Of a stretch of DNA of 42,665 nucleotides, positions 2,884 to 16,522 are shown piece by piece (the stretch's first letter is position 1; every line of letters begins with the position of its first letter). This DNA comes from Candidatus Omnitrophota bacterium (lineage in GTDB: Bacteria; Omnitrophota; Gorgyraeia; Duberdicusellales; 4484-171), in NCBI GenBank assembly GCA_023228195.1, contig JALOBR010000001.1:1-42665 (forward strand), read 5' to 3'. Position numbers and translations under genes: made by a program. The notes beneath the pieces are model-generated. The model searched no databases. It saw only the letters and a program-made list of their open reading frames with translations, and was not told the DNA's origin.

Positions 2884-3134
2884 GTCGCACGAGTGGTGTC
2901 AACAGTCTTTACCGAAAGATCGAGTTTCTTTAGCGCTGTTGCCACCATAAGCTAACAAATTAAATAAATCCCCTTAGAAGCTAAAAGCTCTTGACCGACC
3001 CGAAAACTTTGTAGCGCGAGCGGTGTAACAAGTCTTCGTCGAAGACGAAGTTTCTTCACACTTGTTCCACCTAAGCTACAAACTAAAGAAAGCTCTTTTA
3101 GAAGAAAAAGGTTTTTGACCAAACTGAAAAGTTA
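2884..3134 (+). repeat. Two tandem structured units (periods 127 and 124 nt) derived from the adjacent tRNA-Leu gene
   Basis: Units start GTCGCACGAGTGGTG (2884) and GTAGCGCGAGCGGTG (3011), compared with the tRNA 5' end GCGCGAGTGGTG (3138). Their 3' parts are CCACCATAAGCTA and CCACCTAAGCTAC, compared with the tRNA CCCACCTCGCGCA. Each unit ends with a TTGACC-containing spacer. Confidence 0.8.
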
Positions 3135-3137
3135 CTA

Positions 3138-3221
3138 GCGCGAGTGGTGAAATGGCATACACTTACGTTTGAGGGGCGTATGGCGAAAGCCGTGTGGGTT
3201 CAAGTCCCACCTCGCGCACCA
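3138..3221 (+). tRNA. tRNA-Leu (anticodon GAG), class II with a long variable arm and encoded CCA
   Basis: Hand-folded cloverleaf. Acceptor GCGCGAG/CTCGCGC. 3-bp D stem GTG/CAC with GG in the loop. Anticodon stem TACGT/GCGTA with loop TTGAGGG (U33, GAG, G37). Variable arm GGC-GAAA-GCC. T arm GTGGG-TTCAAGT-CCCAC. Discriminator A plus CCA. Confidence 0.9.
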
Positions 3222-3580
3222 TTTATTTTACTTCAAAAAATCATTGCTCTTTAGATTGTCTTACTTGAACAATAAAAATACTTGGATGTATGATAAAGAA
3301 ACCCCGCCTGCGGCGGAGCATACATACAAGTCCTCCTCCTTCGCCCTTTAAGCTTCGGCGGACAGGCACCTCGCGCATTGCTTTATTTTGATAAAGGAAG
3401 AAACAACAATGGGTTCTCCGCCACTTTAGTTTTTTTATATGGGCGGATCCGCCTTCGGCGGAAAATCCCCTCTCTCGCATATTTTTTTATCAGATTACAT
3501 ATGCCTAAAAATAGTTTAGTATTTAGCAAAACTCTCTATCCGCTCTGCGCTAATAAAATGGCTAACTAGTTTTTCTCGAG

Positions 3581-3770
3581 CTATTGCAAATTTACTCTTT
3601 CCAAAAGTTTTAGCTTATAAGTAAGGCGAGTAAGCTGGCGGGGTAAATCTACATCTTTAAAAAATAATATCTTGCGACAAATCAAACTTAATCGGCATAA
3701 AATTCAGTATTGCGCGTATCCCGCATTCATATAAACTATCTGCGATTTCTTTAATAGGAAAAGTCTTTTC
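3581..3770 (-). pseudogene. Remnant of a Rex-like redox-sensing repressor C-terminus (frameshifted and truncated)
   Basis: The minus strand translates as ...FPIKEIADSLYECGIRAILNFMPIKFDLSQDIIF*. After a frame change it reads FKDVDLPRQLTRLTYKLKLL. The GI(K/R)xILNFxP...VDL...L pattern matches the Rex C-terminus. No N-terminal part is present. Confidence 0.4.
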
Positions 3771-3945
3771 TTAATTGATGACGGATTATTTTCAAGAAAC
3801 TCGCAAACTGACAGCTTGATACTACCTTTTTATTTTATTCAAGAAAATAAATAAATGCGCGCGGACAATAAGACAAACGTATAATGATTTCTTAGGGAAT
3901 TTTTTTAAACATTTGAGAAATAGTTACACGGGTTAATGCCTTCGC

Positions 3946-4316
3946 TTAGCAGATTCTTGGTAAGTTAAACGAATGTGGAAAATCGAGAATCCTTTCGCCC
4001 CCCCCGGAGACCGTTTCAAGCACAATACCTTTTATATTATCGTCAATCTCGCCTATTATCGATGCGGATTTGGATATTTTCTTTAAAGAATTCAAAACTT
4101 TCTTTGAAATTTTATCCGGCGCGGCAAGAACAGCTCTTCCTTCGCAAGCAAGATAATACGGGTTTATCCCTAATATTTCACAGTCGACCCTAACGTCGCG
4201 GCATCTGCTAACTGCGCAATAACCGGATTAGAAAGTTTTTTCAGGAAAACTTCTCTGATTAAATTGTAACTTGCTTTTGCGCCTTCGCCGCGTTTTAAGG
4301 TTATTATCTCTTGCAT
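3946..4316 (-). pseudogene. hypE: hypE remnant (hydrogenase maturation protein): N-terminal about 48 aa, a stop and frameshift, then the C-terminal about 75 aa; the central about 200 aa are missing
   Basis: Minus strand: MQEIITLKRGEGAKASYNLIREVF...DAATLGSTVKY*. In another frame: GINPYYLACEGRAVLAAP...IIGEIDD...VLETVSGGGERILDF...LPRIC*. A terminal PRIC is the HypE signature. Confidence 0.55.
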
Positions 4317-4375
4317 ATTGTTTGCTTAGTCTGAGGTTAAAGTTGGGTAAAATAAAAACTTAACCTTACCTTAGC

Positions 4376-5173
4376 CTAAACCTTTTCGAGCATATTTTTC
4401 GACACACCTATATCCGCAACATATATTTTACCGCAAAGCTTGGGGCCGCTATTTGATAAGAACCCTTTTTTAGGGGCGATAAAGGTGATTGTATAATCTG
4501 CTTTTATCGCTTCTCCCAATATAGCTCCGGAGTCCGGGGACAGCCCTGAAGGGACATCGCATGAGACTATCTTTTTACCGCTTTCATTTATCTCGCTTAT
4601 TATTTTTTTAAGAAAATCCGAAATTCCGCCTTTTGCGCCTATACCCAATATGCCGTCTAAAACAAAATCTGAGGCCTTGAGGTATTTTTTAAGCTTTTTT
4701 ATATTACCAAGGTTAATCGCGCATACAGGGATTTTGATTTTATCCAAAAGTTCTTTCTGGAATTTTACTTCTTCATTAAAATCTTTTTCTTCTGGGGCCC
4801 CACTGAAAAAGCCTGTGAATCCTTTTTTGTTTGCCCCTGTGGAGCGACGTCCCGTTCCTTGATTGCCCACGGGCTGTCCACCAGGACGCCCTGTTGGGCT
4901 GCCGAAGGCGTGCCCATGGAATTCCGGCGAGGGGATTAGAATCACAGCTTTTACGTTGTAATTCTTAGCGGCAAGTTTTCTTGCGCAGGCAAGCGCATCC
5001 GCTCCGTTATTACCCTTGCCTGCCACCACGCATACCTTTTTCCCCAGATTCAAATTATCTATTATGGACGCTAAATTGCTGGAAGCATTTTCTATAAGAA
5101 TTCTTTCGGTAAGGCCAATTTTTTTAGCAGCATGCTCAAGCTTTCTTATTTTTTCTACACTTAAGGCTTTCAT
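4376..5173 (-). CDS. nnrE: NAD(P)H-hydrate epimerase (YjeF N-terminal domain family) with a repeat-encoded insertion
   Basis: VCVVAGKGNNGADALACARKL motif. C-terminal DVPSGL. An extra Gly/Pro-rich segment of about 45 aa (EFHGHAFGSPTGRPGGQPVGNQGTGRRSTGANKKGFTGFFSGAP) is encoded by a GC-rich repeat. Confidence 0.75.
   Translation of the reverse strand: MKALSVEKIRKLEHAAKKIGLTERILIENASSNLASIIDNLNLGKKVCVVAGKGNNGADALACARKLAAKNYNVKAVILIPSPEFHGHAFGSPTGRPGGQPVGNQGTGRRSTGANKKGFTGFFSGAPEEKDFNEEVKFQKELLDKIKIPVCAINLGNIKKLKKYLKASDFVLDGILGIGAKGGISDFLKKIISEINESGKKIVSCDVPSGLSPDSGAILGEAIKADYTITFIAPKKGFLSNSGPKLCGKIYVADIGVSKNMLEKV
4836..4945. repeat. GC-rich palindromic element, copy A (intragenic and in-frame in nnrE)
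   Basis: The 45-nt core CCACGGGCTGTCCACCAGGACGCCCTGTTGGGCTGCCGAAGGCGT (4867-4911) is identical to 9170-9214. The flanks CCCCTGTGGAGCGACGTCCC and GAATCA are also shared with copy B. Confidence 0.85.
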
Positions 5174-5261
5174 GCTGGTTTTAGAAAAGTTTGAGGGTGG
5201 CGGTCAAATTACCTACCCCATTCGCACGCCCGCCTTCGGCGGTCAGGCTCAGGGGTAATTC

Positions 5262-5307
5262 GGTTACACAACTTTTCGGCGCTCTTTGAGCTTGAAAAGT
5301 TGTTACC
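5262..5307 (-). terminator. Stem-loop immediately downstream of the PAC2 gene (possible terminator; no U-tract)
   Basis: ACAACTTTTC / GAAAAGTTGT form a 10-bp perfect stem, extended by GGT/ACC, with a 16-nt loop. Confidence 0.3.
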
Positions 5308-5310
5308 TCA

Positions 5311-6282
5311 TTAATGTGATTCGTCTTTTTTATCTTTCTTCCTGAAAAGATCGAGAAACTTATCTTCGTATTCAACATAAACATTCCAATGGTCAAGCTC
5401 TTCTTTAAGCTTGGCGGCCTTGGTGATGTCTTTCTGCGCTTCCTTAAAAAACCCCTCTATTCTTTCCCTGGCAGACTGTGGAAGTTTGCTGTAAGCAGCT
5501 AAATCTTTTTTAAGTTTTTCTATGTCATCTTCACTTAAAGGGGTTGTGGTTGGCTCAGGGACTTCTCCTTTAAGATAACTTATCAATTTATCTATTTCTG
5601 TTTCGATAAATTTTGCCCTGTCGGTTAAAGGCAAAAGATTTAAATTTAAACCAAGGTAATCATTTATGATTTTTAGAATGCTCGCGCTCGCTTTTGGATT
5701 TTCTATCTGCACGGTATAAAAAGGAATTTCTCCCAAAAGACAAGCCCCCTTAAACCCGCGGGATTTCGCAACTCCAAGGATGAGGCCATTAAGCCCGCTG
5801 ATTTGGCCTTCTTTTAACGGTTTTACGCCCAGCTTATCAAATTCTTCCAATATTTCCTCGTGCGTTGCTACAATTTTTACCAGAGACTCTGCCTTGTGGT
5901 CTATAGCCTCCGGTTTTGCGGCAAAAGTAAGTATAAATTTTGATTTATATTTTTTAACAAAATCAATTATAGCCGAAGACAGCTCTTCTGCTCGCTCAAG
6001 AGGCGGCTGCACTTCACCCATAAACAGAATTATATCCGGTGATTTTTTTCGCTTTACGTAATAGAAAAATCCGGCAGGCATTGAAGGCAATTCAAGGAGC
6101 CCCTTTTCAACAACCACGGCGGCGGGCTTAAAAAATTCTCCGGATTCAAGCTTGGCAAACATCTTAAAACCCATTACCTCGCGAAGAAATAATACGCTTC
6201 TATACGCTACCTCGCCCATCCCAGGCCATGCAGCAATAAAAATAGGGCTCTTTAATTTTGGAGTTGCTACTTCTTTAATCAT
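5311..6282 (-). CDS. PAC2 (proteasome assembly chaperone 2-like) family protein with a C-terminal helical extension
   Basis: N-terminal pattern SPIFIAAWPGMGEVAYRSVLFL is typical of PAC2/PF09754-type proteins. The start was moved to MIKEVATP (6282) because the upstream GTG lies inside a repeat. Confidence 0.5.
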   Translation of the reverse strand: MIKEVATPKLKSPIFIAAWPGMGEVAYRSVLFLREVMGFKMFAKLESGEFFKPAAVVVEKGLLELPSMPAGFFYYVKRKKSPDIILFMGEVQPPLERAEELSSAIIDFVKKYKSKFILTFAAKPEAIDHKAESLVKIVATHEEILEEFDKLGVKPLKEGQISGLNGLILGVAKSRGFKGACLLGEIPFYTVQIENPKASASILKIINDYLGLNLNLLPLTDRAKFIETEIDKLISYLKGEVPEPTTTPLSEDDIEKLKKDLAAYSKLPQSARERIEGFFKEAQKDITKAAKLKEELDHWNVYVEYEDKFLDLFRKKDKKDESH

Positions 6283-6424: not shown

Positions 6425-7669
6425 CTATTTGTTTTTATGCAGATTATCGAGGAATTCTTTTATTTTTTTCTCTTCGCCTATGTCTTTCGGTAAATAATAT
6501 TTATTCCTTGCGCCATAATCCTGCTCAACAAAACCACCGAATGAGTGAGGATATTTATAATCTTTGGAATGCGTTTTTATATTTTTAGGCACCTCTTTGG
6601 TTTCTTCTTCTTCGATGTCCTTTTTAGCGCTATCTATTGCAAGATAAGCTGAATTTGATTTCGGTGAACCAGCGAGATAAATTGTTGCCTGGGCTAAAAT
6701 TAAATCTGATTCCGGCTTACCTATAAATTCAACGGCCTTAAAAGCGCTTGTAGCTAAGACAAGCGCGAAAGGATTTGCGTTGCCGATATCTTCACTGGCT
6801 AAAATTACAATCCGCCTTGCGATAAAACGGGGATCCTCTCCCGATTTAATCATTTTGGCAAGCCAATAAAGAGCGCTGTCAACGTCGCTTCCTCTTACTG
6901 ATTTTATAAATGCGGAAATAGTATCGTAATGATACGAATCTTTTTTATCGTAAAATATATTTTTCTGGATACTTTCACGGGCGATATTTAAATCTAAATT
7001 TATCTTCCCTGATGAGTCTTCCTTGGTGCTAAGAGCCCCTATCTCTAAAGAGCCAAGCGCTTTGCGCGCATCCCCTGCCGATAATACGGCTATGTGTTCG
7101 ATTGCCTCATCACTACAAACAATATTCATATTTCCTAGGCCATTTTCTTTATCAAGCAGGGCGCGCTTAAGAATTGTAATGATATCTTCTTTAGCTAAAG
7201 GCTTGAATTCAGCGACAATGGCACGTGAGATAAGCGATGGTATAAGGTAATAATAAGGATTATATATGGTTGCGCCGATAAGATTTATATTTGCGCTTTC
7301 GGTGTCCGGCACAAGGGACTCCTGCTGCAGCTTATTAAACCGGTGGATTTCATCTATGAATAGAATGGTTTTTCTGCCCTTATCTGCCAATATTTTTTTC
7401 GCATTAAGGATTATCTTTCTGACTTCAACGGAAGAAGTAAAAGAAGCATTCAAATATATAAAATCAGCATCTATACTTTGGGAAACAATAAGGCCAAGTG
7501 TGGTTTTTCCGCATCCGGCAGGCCCGTGGAAAATGAGCGAAGGGAGCCTCTTTGCGATAATCGCGCGCTTTAAGAGCTTCCCTTCTCCTAAAATGTGTTT
7601 CTGGCCGATAAAGTCTTCAAGTGTTTTGGGTCGTAATCGAATTGCAAGAGGCGTATCGCTTTGCAGCAT
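6425..7669 (-). CDS. rarA: Replication-associated recombination protein A (AAA+ ATPase, MgsA/RarA)
   Basis: Walker A GPAGCGKTT, Walker B ILFIDEIHRF, and the conserved C-terminal MgsA domain (DSALYWLAKM, GEDPRFIARR). Confidence 0.9.
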   Translation of the reverse strand: MLQSDTPLAIRLRPKTLEDFIGQKHILGEGKLLKRAIIAKRLPSLIFHGPAGCGKTTLGLIVSQSIDADFIYLNASFTSSVEVRKIILNAKKILADKGRKTILFIDEIHRFNKLQQESLVPDTESANINLIGATIYNPYYYLIPSLISRAIVAEFKPLAKEDIITILKRALLDKENGLGNMNIVCSDEAIEHIAVLSAGDARKALGSLEIGALSTKEDSSGKINLDLNIARESIQKNIFYDKKDSYHYDTISAFIKSVRGSDVDSALYWLAKMIKSGEDPRFIARRIVILASEDIGNANPFALVLATSAFKAVEFIGKPESDLILAQATIYLAGSPKSNSAYLAIDSAKKDIEEEETKEVPKNIKTHSKDYKYPHSFGGFVEQDYGARNKYYLPKDIGEEKKIKEFLDNLHKNK

Positions 7670-13071: not shown

Positions 13072-13106
13072 TCAGCTCTCAGCTATCAGGCGTCAGCCTT
13101 CAGCTC
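13072..13106. repeat. Five tandem heptamers (TCAGCTC TCAGCTA TCAGGCG TCAGCCT TCAGCTC) filling the whole intergenic spacer
   Basis: Read directly. On the coding (minus) strand the unit is nnGCTGA, which puts a TGA in every reading frame. Confidence 0.85.
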
Positions 13107-13609
13107 TAAAAAATTTTGAGGATTAAGTTTTTTAAATTTTTTCTTTTACCTTTTTTAGCAGGTTCGGCAGAATAACCCATTGCTAGAACCGCTTTCAATT
13201 CCAAATTTTTTGGGAGCTTAAGGAGTTTTTTGATTTCCTTGCGTTTATTTAATATTTCACCAAGCCAGCAGGCGCCAAGATTCCGCGAATGAATAAATAA
13301 AAGCATATTTTGAATACAGGCTCCAATTGCCATTAAATCTTTCTCACGGCTGTAAGAAAGTTTTTTATCTAAAAACACGAGGATAATTTTATTTGCGCCT
13401 TTTATTATGTAACTGTAATGAGTGAAGTGAGCCAGGGAATCTTTCTCATCTTCATCCAAAACCAGAAACCGCCAGGGCTGGTTGTTAAGGCCTGACGGGG
13501 CCCAGCTGGCTGCCTCTAAAATTTTTTCTATTGTTTTAGAAGAAATGCTGGTTTTTTTAAATTTTCTGATTGAACGGCGGGATTTGATTAATTGTAGAAT
13601 ATCTTTCAT
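13106..13609 (-). CDS. Nitroreductase family protein
   Basis: RRSIRKFK, PSGLNNQPWRFLV, and a small (167 aa) FMN-nitroreductase-like layout. Confidence 0.8.
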   Translation of the reverse strand: MKDILQLIKSRRSIRKFKKTSISSKTIEKILEAASWAPSGLNNQPWRFLVLDEDEKDSLAHFTHYSYIIKGANKIILVFLDKKLSYSREKDLMAIGACIQNMLLFIHSRNLGACWLGEILNKRKEIKKLLKLPKNLELKAVLAMGYSAEPAKKGKRKNLKNLILKIF

Positions 13610-13654
13610 TTGCCGTTATTATAGGCAAAACATGAAATAGTTCAAGTTTTTTTC

Positions 13655-13683
13655 TTTACACACATCTGAAACCGTGCTATAAA
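13655..13683 (+). promoter_or_regulatory. Sigma70-like promoter for the plus-strand HEPN-like/2-TM islet
   Basis: TTTACA (13655-13660), 17-nt spacer, TATAAA (13678-13683), about 66 nt upstream of the ATG. Confidence 0.45.
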
Positions 13684-13749
13684 TGAACCGAAAAAGAACT
13701 TTTTGATAGGACGGGGAAAGATCAACTAGCAATTGTTAAAGTAAATAAA

Positions 13750-14538
13750 ATGGAAACAAATATTTCTAAATATAAAATTGATCTGGAAAAACTTATTGAT
13801 AAGGGTTATTTATTATACTATAGTATGGCGATCGAATTGAATATTGGGGATCCTAAGGAAAAGAAGGAACTCAAAAAGATCGCTGATGAGAAAAATTTAC
13901 CTAGTTTTAAGCTCGAATACGAGACATGGTATTCAGAAGCACAACAAGTCATAAAACAAATTATTCCCGATAGGCTAAACGACTTTATAAAACTTTACAA
14001 AGAGGAAAAAAGAAAAGAAATTTCTTTCCTTACTTACACTATCTCTGATTGTATGCTTGGCTTAAGAACCAGCCGACTGGGCGAAACTATCGCAGATGGG
14101 ACAGCAGCATTTCCCAAATTTGAACAACAATTGAATATTCTAAAATCAGCTCAACAAAGATTTGCAAGTTCTCTTTTTGATATAAAACAGGTATTGCAAG
14201 CAGATATTTTTGACAATGAACTGGCTGCTGCTCAAGAACTTATCAAAAAAGGATTTGTTCGAGGTGCAGGGGCGATAGCAGGTGTTATTCTAGAAAAGCA
14301 CCTTGCTCAAGTTTGTGAAAATCATAAAATCGGCATAAAAAATAAGAATTTTTCTCTAAGCGAATATAACGACGCATTAAAAAACTTAGAAGTTATAGAT
14401 ATTCCTCAATGGCGCTTTATTCAACATTTAACTGACCTCAGAAATGTTTGTGACCACAAAAAACAAAATGATCCTAAAAAAGATGAGATTGAAGGTTTAA
14501 TTTCGGGGGTAGAAAAAATAATAAAAACAATATTTTAA
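13750..14538 (+). CDS. Helical N-terminal domain plus C-terminal HEPN-like domain (Rx4H motif) protein
   Basis: The C-terminal about 110 aa read AGAIAGVILEKHLAQVCENHKI...LSEYNDALKNL...FIQHLTDLRNVCDHKK. R231-x4-H236 is encoded at 14440-14457. The all-helical pattern resembles DUF4145/HEPN domains. The N-terminal 150 aa were not recognised. Confidence 0.55.
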   Translation: METNISKYKIDLEKLIDKGYLLYYSMAIELNIGDPKEKKELKKIADEKNLPSFKLEYETWYSEAQQVIKQIIPDRLNDFIKLYKEEKRKEISFLTYTISDCMLGLRTSRLGETIADGTAAFPKFEQQLNILKSAQQRFASSLFDIKQVLQADIFDNELAAAQELIKKGFVRGAGAIAGVILEKHLAQVCENHKIGIKNKNFSLSEYNDALKNLEVIDIPQWRFIQHLTDLRNVCDHKKQNDPKKDEIEGLISGVEKIIKTIF

Positions 14539-14608
14539 CCTTAATAACTTATCTCGCCGGAATGTATTTGTATGTTTTTGAAACTGCTCATCCAGCCGGT
14601 GGATTAGA

Positions 14609-15172
14609 ATGTTCGGAGATATAATGAAAAAACTATTTTCGAAAATCACAACAGGAAGTCCTATAATTGATGGTCTAATAATTATTGTAATTACGGCATT
14701 TTTAGGTTTTTTGTTGCGAATAAAATTTAATTTTAAATTATTAGAATTTTTGTTATTTCCATTTAAAATTCCCTTAGGGTTTATGGTAGTTTTTTTAAGC
14801 CTATCACTTATTTTTATAAAACGCCTTTGTTTCAATTTACCTTACGAATCTAAATTGGGACACTTATTAATTAATCGAAAATACCGTTTAATATATAACC
14901 CTAAAGACGGTCGAAGCAAAGAAATAGGGTTTGGAAAATACGGGAAGATAACAGAAGGTCAGAATGATAATGAGTATTCTTGGCATATATCCTCGAAAAG
15001 ATTAGAAATTTTTGGAGCTGATGGAAAGATTTATAGTAGATTTCGATACGACAAAGACCGGCAACAGTTTTTACATACTAATGATTCAGATACTAGGTCT
15101 ATACAAAACCAAGTTATAGAACCAATTCAAGCTGGAATAATTGATTGGGCTAAGCAAAAGAAAAACTTCTAA
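14609..15172 (+). CDS. Two-TM membrane protein with an uncharacterised soluble C-terminal domain of about 110 aa
   Basis: Hydrophobic helices IIDGLIIIVITAFLGFLL and IPLGFMVVFLSLSLIFI. Same strand as the HEPN-like gene and 70 nt downstream of it. The start could instead be MKKLF at 14624. Confidence 0.55.
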   Translation: MFGDIMKKLFSKITTGSPIIDGLIIIVITAFLGFLLRIKFNFKLLEFLLFPFKIPLGFMVVFLSLSLIFIKRLCFNLPYESKLGHLLINRKYRLIYNPKDGRSKEIGFGKYGKITEGQNDNEYSWHISSKRLEIFGADGKIYSRFRYDKDRQQFLHTNDSDTRSIQNQVIEPIQAGIIDWAKQKKNF

Positions 15173-15214
15173 CACTCCCACCCCACCAACGGAATAAAAA
15201 GTTCATTTTTCGGG

Positions 15215-16318
15215 CTAAGTAAGCCAATAGCCGAGTTCTTGGAGTATCCTTGGTTTATCCTGCCAATCCCTTAAGACTGTTACCCAGATATCCAGAAAAA
15301 CTTTTTTATTGAAAATTGCTTCTATTTCCTTGCGTGCTTCTCTGCCTATTTCCTTTAAAAGTTCTCCTTTGGCTCCTATTACTATTTTTTTCTGCGATGG
15401 ACGGTTTACGTAAATGTTTACCCTCACATAGACAAATCCGGTTTTTACAAAATCTTCCGGAACGCTTGATGAAGAAAGCAAAGAATCTTCACTTTCTTCA
15501 ATTTCTTCATCTTCAACCCCTTCTTCACCGGACGTTTCCTCTGGGTTATCTTCCATTTCTTCTTCCACTTCCATCTCTTCGCTAGCCTCATACGTTTCTT
15601 CGGTTTCTTCAATCTTGCCGCCTTGGGGCATATCTTTAATTGCCCGAATTTCAACAGCTAACGAATGCGGCAATTCTTTCGCTAACACAATAAATAATTT
15701 CTCCCTTACTATATCTGCTATGCGGAACTTAAGCGGAAAATCAGTTAATGTCTTATTGTCGTAAAAAGGCACTTGCCTTGGAAGATTTTCTAAAATTACC
15801 TCACGAAGAACGTCGATATTTTTATTTAGCTTTGCCGAGATAGGAAGGTAATAAACAAGGGGGTCATTTTTAACTCCCTTATTGCTTATTATCTTTCTCC
15901 AACAGTCTATATATTCATTTAAAGCCTTCGTTCCCAAATCAAGCTTGTTTAAAACCATTATGGTCTTTATGTTTTGCTGGGTAAGAAAATCCACTATCTC
16001 AAGTTCTTCTTTCCCGAAAGTGCGCGAAATGTCAACGACGTATAGAATCAAATCGCAGCCTTCAATTGATTGCTTTGCAATTGTATTTAGCTGGGTTGCA
16101 AGATTATCTTTAAATGAATGTATGCCGGGAGTATCGACAAAAACAACCTGCGCGTCTTTTAAATTCAAAATACCCTTTATCTGATGGCGGGTAGTTTGCG
16201 GGATGGGCGAAACAATGCTTACTTTTGTTTTGAGCAACGCGTTAAGCATCGTGGACTTACCGACATTGGGCCTACCCATAATTGCCACAAAACCTGATTT
16301 GAAATTTTCGTTTGTCAT
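15215..16318 (-). CDS. era: GTPase Era with an acidic insertion of about 60 aa in the KH domain
   Basis: G1 GRPNVGKST, G3 DTPG, G4 NKLD. KH-domain residues VNRPSQKKIVIGAKG. The start was set at MTNENF (16318) because the ORF-track extension MAICVIKN lies in the MITE-like element. Confidence 0.9.
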   Translation of the reverse strand: MTNENFKSGFVAIMGRPNVGKSTMLNALLKTKVSIVSPIPQTTRHQIKGILNLKDAQVVFVDTPGIHSFKDNLATQLNTIAKQSIEGCDLILYVVDISRTFGKEELEIVDFLTQQNIKTIMVLNKLDLGTKALNEYIDCWRKIISNKGVKNDPLVYYLPISAKLNKNIDVLREVILENLPRQVPFYDNKTLTDFPLKFRIADIVREKLFIVLAKELPHSLAVEIRAIKDMPQGGKIEETEETYEASEEMEVEEEMEDNPEETSGEEGVEDEEIEESEDSLLSSSSVPEDFVKTGFVYVRVNIYVNRPSQKKIVIGAKGELLKEIGREARKEIEAIFNKKVFLDIWVTVLRDWQDKPRILQELGYWLT

Positions 16319-16329
16319 ATTTTTTATTA

Positions 16330-16522
16330 CACAGATGGCCACAGATAATAAATCACAACCCCGTTACCCTAGATAAATATATTAAGGTTCGGGGCGTCCC
16401 GCACCTTAATAATTATATATAGCCCAGCAGGCTGAAAGCCTGGTGAATAGGAAACGGGACAGATGATCGCAGATGAATTTATCTGTGCTCATCCGCTTGC
16501 AAATCTGCGCTAATCTGTGCGC
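16330..16522 (-). mobile_element. MITE-like element, copy X (about 190 bp, CACAGAT-word terminal inverted repeats)
   Basis: The ends are CACAGATGGCCACAGAT and, in reverse complement, GCGCACAGATTAGCGCAGAT. The core 16343-16468 is the reverse complement of 20149-20274 with 2 mismatches counted by eye. Confidence 0.8.

Follow-up and report, generated by a model that had tools for sequence, protein, structure and literature searches.

A candidate defence islet between era and a nitroreductase gene of Candidatus Omnitrophica encodes a DUF4145-like HEPN protein and a membrane-anchored β-barrel protein

Introduction

Single-gene defence proteins built on a DUF4145-type HEPN domain have been experimentally validated, including RAZR/PD-T7-4 (PMC13017515) and BxaP (PMC10799925), and the validated DUF4145-HEPN protein Ishtar has anti-plasmid activity (bioRxiv 10.64898/2026.07.06.735840). 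Variable N-terminal domains of HEPN proteins, their linkage to restriction-modification (R-M) genes, and the retention of an Rx4-6H motif in ~80% of DUF4145 proteins were described by Anantharaman et al. in 2013 (PMC3710099). Among membrane effectors, the S-2TMβ proteins (Cap15/OptE) combine two transmembrane (TM) segments with a nucleotide-binding β-barrel, and their oligomerisation disrupts the membrane (PMC12657218). Here, we analysed a 42,665-nucleotide stretch, referred to as the window, from a metagenome-assembled genome (MAG) of Candidatus Omnitrophica. An inserted islet of ~1.6 kb (13610-15214) carries two plus-strand open reading frames (ORFs), gene 1 and gene 2, which encode a HEPN protein and a two-pass membrane protein, respectively. 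We consider it probable, although far from settled, that the islet is acquired defence cargo, in which a stand-alone HEPN RNase of the abortive-infection type and a defence-island accessory membrane protein lie together without forming a conserved system.

Gene 1 resembles RAZR, BxaP, and Ishtar1 in possessing one HEPN/DUF4145-like domain with an Rx4-6H motif and one unrelated, presumably sensing domain. They also share a patchy distribution, R-M or mobile-element neighbourhoods, and the lack of an MNT antitoxin. A first-pass annotation of the window had regarded a HEPN protein without an MNT antitoxin as unusual, a view that the known stand-alone DUF4145-type HEPN defence proteins do not bear out. 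In contrast to RAZR, which contains an N-terminal Cys4 zinc ribbon, gene 1 has a helical N-terminal domain. It has a single cysteine in aa 1-166, which makes a Cys4 zinc ribbon impossible, and no cysteine is found among the conserved N-terminal residues of the family. BxaP, with a C-terminal HEAT-like domain, and Ishtar, with an α/β domain, both carry the HEPN domain at the N-terminus, whereas that of gene 1 is C-terminal. The PADLOC v2.0.0 models, presumably including the PD-T7-4 model, gave no match to gene 1 at E≤10. On the basis of this search, the helical N-terminal domain, and the missing Cys4 motif, the identification of gene 1 as RAZR/PD-T7-4 was rejected.

The HEPN-MNT (HepT-MntA) type II/VII toxin-antitoxin (TA) systems provide the best structural matches of the C-terminal domain of gene 1 (5yep, 7bxo, 6m6w, and 7ae6-9). 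The Rx4H catalytic logic is shared, but the relationship is at the superfamily level only, and gene 1 is twice as long owing to its extra N-terminal domain. Assignment to the HEPN-MNT TA systems was rejected, with no nucleotidyltransferase gene adjoining gene 1 (its neighbours are the nitroreductase gene, gene 2, and era) and no recurrent partner in 86 loci of the family. A type III TA system was likewise rejected: no tandem-repeat family was detected in 13400-15400, and the best Rfam match reached only E=0.55, with no RNA antitoxin or riboswitch found.

Results

Gene 1 (13750-14538, plus strand) encodes a protein of 262 aa, whose AlphaFold2 (AF2) model has a mean predicted local distance difference test (pLDDT) score of 86.4. 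The analysis confirmed a HEPN domain in its C-terminal half, nearest to DUF4145 and bearing a conserved Rx4H motif. The domain spans approximately aa 170-262 (14257-14535) and includes the 'EKHL' helix. Its catalytic motif R231-N-V-C-D-H236 is encoded at 14440-14457, where R231 of LRNVCDH corresponds to 14440-14442 and H236 to 14455-14457. R231 and H236 (DLRNLCDH in the family), together with E182 and H184 of the 'EKHL' helix, are invariant in 116/116 close homologs. Among 53 divergent representatives of the family, R231 is kept in 50 and H236 in 47.

The PDB matches of the gene 1 model by Foldseek are mostly HEPN proteins (5yep_C, 1o3u, 2hsb, 7bxo, 6m6w, 1wol, and Csm6), with probabilities of 0.9-1.0, target TM-scores (TMt) of 0.56-0.70, and 115-128 aligned columns, which is about the length of the C-terminal HEPN domain. 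The named matches comprise the HepT toxins (5yep, 7bxo, and 6m6w), followed by TM0613, AF_0298, ST0689, and Csm6. Pfam DUF4145 (PF13643) aligns with aa 187-251 (E=0.028, 14.9 bits), and HEPN_Apea matches below threshold only. The 53 divergent relatives match DUF4145 in 26 cases (E≤0.05, best 6.2e-5), HEPN in 14, and HEPN_RiboL-PSP in 7. Since the DUF4145 score is sub-threshold in gene 1 itself and about half of the relatives (26/53) match this family, gene 1 is a divergent sister or outlier of DUF4145 and no clear member. The sole match from PADLOC, NCBIfam, and PHROGs is phrog_2039, which aligns with the HEPN region (E=2.4e-4). Searches of PDB sequences with the family profiles of gene 1 and gene 2 yielded chance-level matches only.

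The N-terminal region of gene 1 (aa 1-166, 13750-14247) is modelled by AF2 as helices, including one long helix at aa 117-166 that is preceded by a small β-hairpin at aa 107-115. Searches of Pfam, PDB, PHROG, and known folds gave no match to the N-terminal ~165 aa, and no Pfam family was consistently matched by this region among the 53 relatives. Three of its residues, W60, R75, and Q127, are nevertheless kept in 53/53 divergent relatives, and we infer that the region is the regulatory or sensing part of the protein. The first-pass annotation had described gene 1 as HEPN-like, with an Rx4H motif (LRNVCDH) in a DUF4145 layout, and had left the N-terminal ~150 aa unrecognised. The invariant motif, the HEPN fold matches, and the DUF4145 matches of the relatives substantiate the former, and the family and fold searches agree with the latter.

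Gene 1 belongs to a large, patchy, and uncharacterised family. We identified 2,781 homologs at E≤1e-3 in a 90%-clustered database, forming 1,729 clusters at 50% identity. In a collection with one genome per species, gene 1 was present in about 322/185,579 species genomes (about 0.17%). These species are scattered over dozens of phyla, including bacteria of the candidate phyla radiation (CPR) and Methanosarcinales/Methanophagales archaea, at 47-72% identity. Such a patchy distribution across phyla at this level of identity indicates horizontal spread.

The genomic neighbourhoods of the family are diverse. No recurrent partner was found, the commonest neighbour family occurring in 7/86 loci. Amid otherwise ordinary genes, the immediate neighbours show an enrichment of type I R-M subunits (Methylase_S 6, ResIII 6, N6_Mtase 3, and HSDR_N 3), integrases (3), and HNH proteins (2). 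Type I R-M subunits adjoin gene 1 homologs in about 7-12 of 82 loci. In two of these loci (L041 and L060, around 5001-5800), the homolog is located between hsdS (-1) and a ~1,050-aa gene (+1), presumably hsdR; within its own type I R-M operon, prrC occupies the corresponding slot. A homolog from another Omnitrophica genome (L001) resides in an integrase/VapBC/BrnT island, and the closest homologs of gene 1 (72% and 70% identity) are each inserted alone, next to mraZ/rsmH or dapB. One megaplasmid carries a homolog. Homologs are also present on 25 IMG/VR viral contigs (L133-L157), mostly less than 1 kb from the contig end, a position that fits either prophage-border cargo or host flank within the prediction; none was found in GenBank genomes of isolate phages. 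Taken together, these observations support a mobile gene family with defence and mobile-element neighbours. A hidden upstream partner was also considered, namely the ~300-aa proteins encoded in L158 and L160, which hold the closest gene 1 homologs, and was rejected as the two proteins are mutually unrelated (E=0.23).

The islet lies between a nitroreductase gene (13106-13609, minus strand) and era (15215-16342, minus strand). Era homologs were searched and the loci of the closest ones were compared by blastn synteny. In one of these loci (L130, Era 90% identical), the nitroreductase gene is found 18 nt after era and the islet is missing. DNA identity between this locus and the window is 84-87% over the syntenic block, and the synteny ends at window position 15205 and restarts at 13591. 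In a second relative (L131, Era 75% identical), era and the nitroreductase gene overlap, again without an islet. The order M20 peptidase, era, nitroreductase, and tRNA-U5 methyltransferase is common to the window and both relatives. Next to era, the terminal ~25 nt of the islet (about 15189-15214) look like the native spacer between era and the nitroreductase gene in L130. In a third relative (L132, Era 76% identical), the same junction contains an unrelated 152-aa signal-peptide gene on the opposite strand (7115-7573, minus strand), and because a different gene occupies it there, the junction is a local recurrent insertion hotspot. Neither an integrase nor a transposase was found within the islet, and no tRNA gene is present at the insertion site. 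The sole candidate for a terminal repeat, an inverted repeat (13688-13707 and 15194-15213; 20 nt, 75%-complementary), was rejected as chance, because 30 comparable pairs occur in 2 kb and its right arm falls in the native-like spacer.

The composition of the islet is atypical as well. Its GC content is 0.32, compared with 0.375 for the window. At third codon positions, gene 1 has a GC content (GC3) of 0.25 and gene 2 of 0.23, compared with 0.354±0.041 for 37 window ORFs, and every other ORF of the window lies above both. Together with the empty site in L130 and L131, the atypical GC3 supports the conclusion that the islet is an insertion acquired horizontally. The first-pass annotation had suspected acquisition from an AT-richness judged by eye, and the measured values are stronger than that impression. 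Rather than being core genome conserved at this locus, the islet is missing from the closest relatives. The two plus-strand ORFs exist as described there inside a block of minus-strand genes: from 4376 to the window end they are the sole substantial plus-strand ORFs, the others measuring 97, 191, and 75 aa.

A promoter-like sequence, TTTACA-17 nt-TATAAA, can be read directly off the plus strand upstream of gene 1 (13655-13683), and the pair had been credited with its own promoter on this account. The sequence is literally present, but it was not scored by the promoter scanner, and near-consensus matches in the AT-rich islet stretch are statistically indistinguishable from background (4 found versus 7.5±3.3 expected from shuffled sequence). 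As such matches are no commoner than in shuffled sequence, it is weak evidence of an own promoter. No intrinsic terminator was predicted between or after the two genes, and since none separates them, they are likely co-transcribed.

Gene 2 (14624-15172, plus strand) encodes a protein of 182 aa, or of 187 aa if translation starts at 14609. The start is probably M6 of the longer form, the second ATG at 14624, because a GGAG Shine-Dalgarno sequence lies 8 nt upstream of it in the intergenic spacer (14539-14623), the close relatives all begin there, and the NCBI entry has 182 aa. In the 182-aa numbering, the hydropathy profile and the AF2 helices agree on a two-pass membrane anchor with TM1 at aa 13-31 and TM2 at aa 47-67 (14660-14824), in line with the two TM helices annotated at first. 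The anchor is followed by a conserved C-terminal β-barrel (about aa 80-168, 14861-15127), delineated by alignments, AF2, and Foldseek, with the motif G-x-N-x-NE-x-x-W ... L-E-I ... Y-S-R-F ... H-T-N-D-x-D-x-R-S. The AF2 model of this C-terminal domain (~85 aa) is a seven-strand barrel-like structure with pLDDT above 90.

No Pfam, NCBIfam, PADLOC, or PHROG family matches gene 2 itself. In Foldseek searches, the barrel resembles the 8-stranded barrels of U-Omp19 (E=1.3e-3), Inh-type inhibitors, and the lipocalin-like BT_0869 (7mhw, E=1.3e-3; 6iy4; 1smp_I; 3hty) at a sequence identity of 7-13%, and one gene 2 relative matches Pfam Lipocalin_4 (E=2.8e-4). The soluble domain that the first-pass annotation did not recognise thus matches no curated family and has a lipocalin-like β-barrel fold. 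A fold search of BFVD returned no credible match; the only trace of S-2TMβ was a BFVD entry of that name, with a probability of 0.14. Positive charges of gene 2 are located in the N-terminal tail and after TM2, a pattern that suggests that both termini are cytoplasmic. The charges around the TM segments, together with fusions of the barrel to cytoplasmic NTPases in the family (see below), indicate that the barrel is probably cytoplasmic. By contrast, the proteins that give the best fold matches of the soluble domain (Inh/AprI inhibitors, U-Omp19, and Lipocalin_4 barrels) are secreted, periplasmic, or lipoproteins, and the gene 2 barrel occurs in defence contexts.

The gene 2 family is rare, with 15 proteins found in 5.8 billion and 37 metagenome loci. 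The barrel is always C-terminal and is preceded by two TM segments, one TM segment, or soluble regions. Among the closest relatives of gene 2 (the 2-TM subgroup), the gene directly follows a defence effector, and is read in the same direction, in 4/4 informative contexts. The window itself provides one of these contexts, with gene 2 behind the DUF4145-like HEPN protein gene 1. In L007 (2581-5528), a compact four-gene array beside an integrase encodes DUF6088 (AbiEi-like), AbiEii, Hypoth_Ymh, and a gene 2-like protein in this order. The relatives in L010 and L012 lie behind AbiEi/AbiEii and behind a LmuA/ThsA-like SIR2 protein inside a type I R-M operon, respectively. Two of the preceding effectors are thus HEPN-type, the DUF4145-like protein of the window and Ymh in L007, Ymh having been treated as a HEPN family (PMC3710099). 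More distant relatives are encoded behind AbiU (L098, E=3.7e-206), a PDC-S48-like DEDDh exonuclease (L093), and a weak PLD-like protein (L104). In addition, a KAP-NTPase-LRR protein of 1,046 aa in L112 (741-3878, plus strand; LRR, leucine-rich repeat) terminates in the gene 2-type barrel, as does an LRR protein in L109 (730-3605, plus strand) whose gene comes directly behind that of a KAP NTPase. In one further member of the family, the barrel is fused to a Ser/Thr kinase domain. A scan of viral contigs revealed no gene 2 relative. The gene 2 family is rare and undescribed, and its members recur behind diverse defence effectors, as the final gene, or in KAP-NTPase-LRR fusions.

Although the two genes stand side by side in the islet, they do not form a conserved two-gene unit, since a gene 2 relative was found in 0/86 loci of gene 1, and gene 1 in 0/43 loci of the gene 2 type. 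The sizes of the two families are ~100-fold apart (2,781 versus 15 matches). The first-pass annotation had proposed a dedicated module of a HEPN protein and a 2-TM protein and had named a lack of synteny in relatives as the result that would speak against it; this is what we found, and with no recurrent partner of gene 1 and such a gap in family size, the proposal is not supported. A weaker form of it survives, in which the gene 2 family behaves as an add-on that comes directly after defence effectors of various kinds, HEPN proteins in two cases.

Other features of the window were noted. Its Era protein contains a poly-acidic insert of ~63 aa (aa ~238-300, EETEETYEASEEMEVEEEMEDNPEETSGEEGVEDEEIEESEDS..., 15443-15631, minus strand). 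The extra length is common only to the closest Omnitrophota Era proteins (363-372 aa), and alignments with ordinary ~300-aa Era homologs span merely ~60% of the window Era. A tRNA-Leu gene is located at 3138-3221, gene orientation flips from plus to minus across ~3000-4400, and the cumulative GC skew reaches its maximum at ~3 kb of the window. Because the genes converge there and the GC skew peaks, this region is suggestive of a replication terminus, not an origin.

Discussion

We favour the interpretation that the islet is acquired defence cargo with gene 1 as its effector. From the fold, motif conservation, mobile distribution, genomic context, and insertion of gene 1 presented above, an RNase activity, a dimeric state, a trigger, and a defence phenotype may be proposed as follows. 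If gene 1 behaves like the characterised HEPN proteins, it would dimerise, and R231 and H236 of the two copies would form a composite site for metal-independent RNA cleavage. The N-terminal helical domain would hold the protein off, in an auto-inhibited or trigger-gated state, until a trigger from a phage or mobile element is sensed. Activated gene 1 would then cut cellular or invader RNA, leading to growth arrest, that is, abortive infection. Gene 2, judged by its architecture and context, would most likely be an accessory sensor or membrane effector. It might work like the S-2TMβ effectors Cap15/OptE, an idea that we hold with low confidence.

Several observations weigh against this interpretation. 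With regard to the HEPN assignment, the Foldseek E-values of the HEPN matches are weak (0.16 or worse) despite probabilities of ~1.0, and the DUF4145 score of gene 1 lies under the gathering cut-off (14.9 versus 23.1 bits). Neither protein has a match in PADLOC v2, the defence-system search that had been suggested at the outset and was run here, in NCBIfam, or above threshold in Pfam. With regard to function, and judging by conservation, the N-terminal domain of gene 1 is under no less constraint than the catalytic site. The catalytic histidine is lost in 6/53 divergent relatives (P0193, P0229, P0244, P0248, P0254, and P0259), three of which also lack the arginine, and all six retain W60, R75, and Q127. 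In these six proteins, HEPN catalysis may have been lost and the function of the N-terminal domain kept. Given the loss of the histidine in 6/53 relatives and the stronger conservation of the N-terminal domain than of the active site, gene 1 may have a core function beyond RNA cleavage alone. With regard to context, the majority of gene 1 neighbours are ordinary housekeeping genes, and the defence-island signal around gene 1 is consequently only moderate. Finally, the equally low GC3 of the two genes, the lack of a predicted terminator between them, and their arrival in a single insertion are also compatible with a functional pair.

The last point leads to a different explanation, in which gene 1 and gene 2 constitute a genuine, rare two-component defence operon in this genome. 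In such an operon, the HEPN protein could act as a sensor or enzyme whose activity or products are answered by the membrane effector, or a membrane sensor could release the RNase. The genes share a strand and unusually low GC3 within one 1.6-kb insertion, are separated by a gap of only 71-85 nt without a predicted terminator, and gene 2 has a good Shine-Dalgarno sequence. The 4/4 close gene 2 relatives placed immediately behind a co-directional defence effector, two of them HEPN-type, are in line with this arrangement, and two TM segments with a β-barrel are the layout of an established effector class, that of Cap15/OptE. However, 86/86 other loci of gene 1, those of its closest homologs included, lack gene 2, and the effectors preceding gene 2 relatives are unrelated, so that neither gene needs the other. 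Moreover, gene 1 has no β-barrel copy or obvious docking module, and gene 2 lacks a sequence link to S-2TMβ. We therefore regard the operon as unlikely, while still giving it some weight.

The varied partners of gene 2 suggest another explanation, which we rate as rather unlikely. The gene 2 barrel would be a promiscuous membrane-tethered 'tail' module, an analogue and not a homologue of S-2TMβ, that serves many defence enzymes, with DUF4145- and Ymh-type HEPN proteins, AbiEii, SIR2, AbiU, DEDDh exonuclease, and KAP-NTPase-LRR proteins as its partners. It might turn the activity or products of its partner into membrane disruption, or relay an envelope-derived infection signal. In the islet, gene 2 would then be coupled to a HEPN family whose N-terminal domain is conserved beyond the active site.

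Gene 2 was compared directly with S-2TMβ. It is similar in layout and size to Cap15 of the cyclic oligonucleotide-based antiphage signalling system (CBASS) and OptE of Panoptes, has the two-pass TM segment and C-terminal β-barrel that define the class, and, like them, is a last gene in defence operons. However, the S_2TMBeta profile matches neither gene 2 (E≤10) nor 35 members of its family (E≤1), and Cap15 is outside the top 50 PDB fold matches of gene 2, results that also count against an S-2TMβ-like role in our preferred interpretation. No CD-NTase or mCpol gene was found in the islet or in the operons of gene 2 relatives. S-2TMβ has been described as obligately fused to two TM segments, whereas gene 2-type barrels also occur with one TM segment, with none, or with KAP-NTPase-LRR or kinase domains. 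Membership of gene 2 in S-2TMβ thus fails on sequence and operon partner.

Gene 1 could also be a selfish or inter-element weapon, either an anti-plasmid HEPN protein like Ishtar or an R-M 'guardian' RNase like PrrC that fires upon inhibition of its partner R-M system. As with PrrC/RloC, a minority of the gene 1 family resides inside type I R-M operons, including the prrC-like slot in L041 and L060, and conceptually both are 'second-line' suicidal RNases. The type I R-M genes beside about 7-12/82 homologs, the reported anti-plasmid activity of HEPN/DUF4145 proteins, and the 47-72% cross-phylum identity, which suggests rapid horizontal spread as in selfish elements, all accord with this explanation. 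On the other hand, no R-M system is nearby in the window or in most loci. PrrC/RloC have another fold and other domains, and gene 1 lacks their ABC (ATP-binding cassette)-ATPase head and an anticodon-binding domain. The data cannot tell an anti-phage from an anti-plasmid role, and overall we judge a selfish weapon to be decidedly unlikely. That the pair is native housekeeping, such as RNA processing with a membrane protein and an incidental composition, is highly improbable: some HEPN proteins do have housekeeping roles (PMC3710099) and the immediate neighbours of gene 1 homologs are mostly ordinary genes, but the empty site in the closest relatives largely refutes it, gene 1 is confined to about 0.17% of species genomes scattered over bacteria and archaea, the GC3 of the pair is below that of any other window ORF, and the genomic context differs in every lineage.

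As an object, a small acquired defence islet at a core-gene hotspot is ordinary and would not surprise a specialist. Both proteins represent uncharacterised families in known architectural classes, a HEPN protein with a new N-terminal domain and a 2-TM protein with a new barrel, and showing that the pair is not conserved prevents a false system annotation. The gene 1 family, with ~1,700 clusters at 50% identity in bacteria and archaea, is unusually well conserved and has the typical features of a single-gene abortive-infection RNase, so that gene 1 is a cheap and well-defined test candidate with R231A/H236A as controls. Residues W60, R75, and Q127 may point to a trigger-sensing surface. Experiments are warranted by the size and conservation of this family, its strictly conserved N-terminal domain, and the promiscuous, defence-linked gene 2 barrel. 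This barrel is an undescribed domain that closes several different defence operons at their 3' end and also occurs in KAP-NTPase-LRR fusions. If it proves to be a general accessory sensor or effector, it would be a new reusable part among bacterial immune modules.

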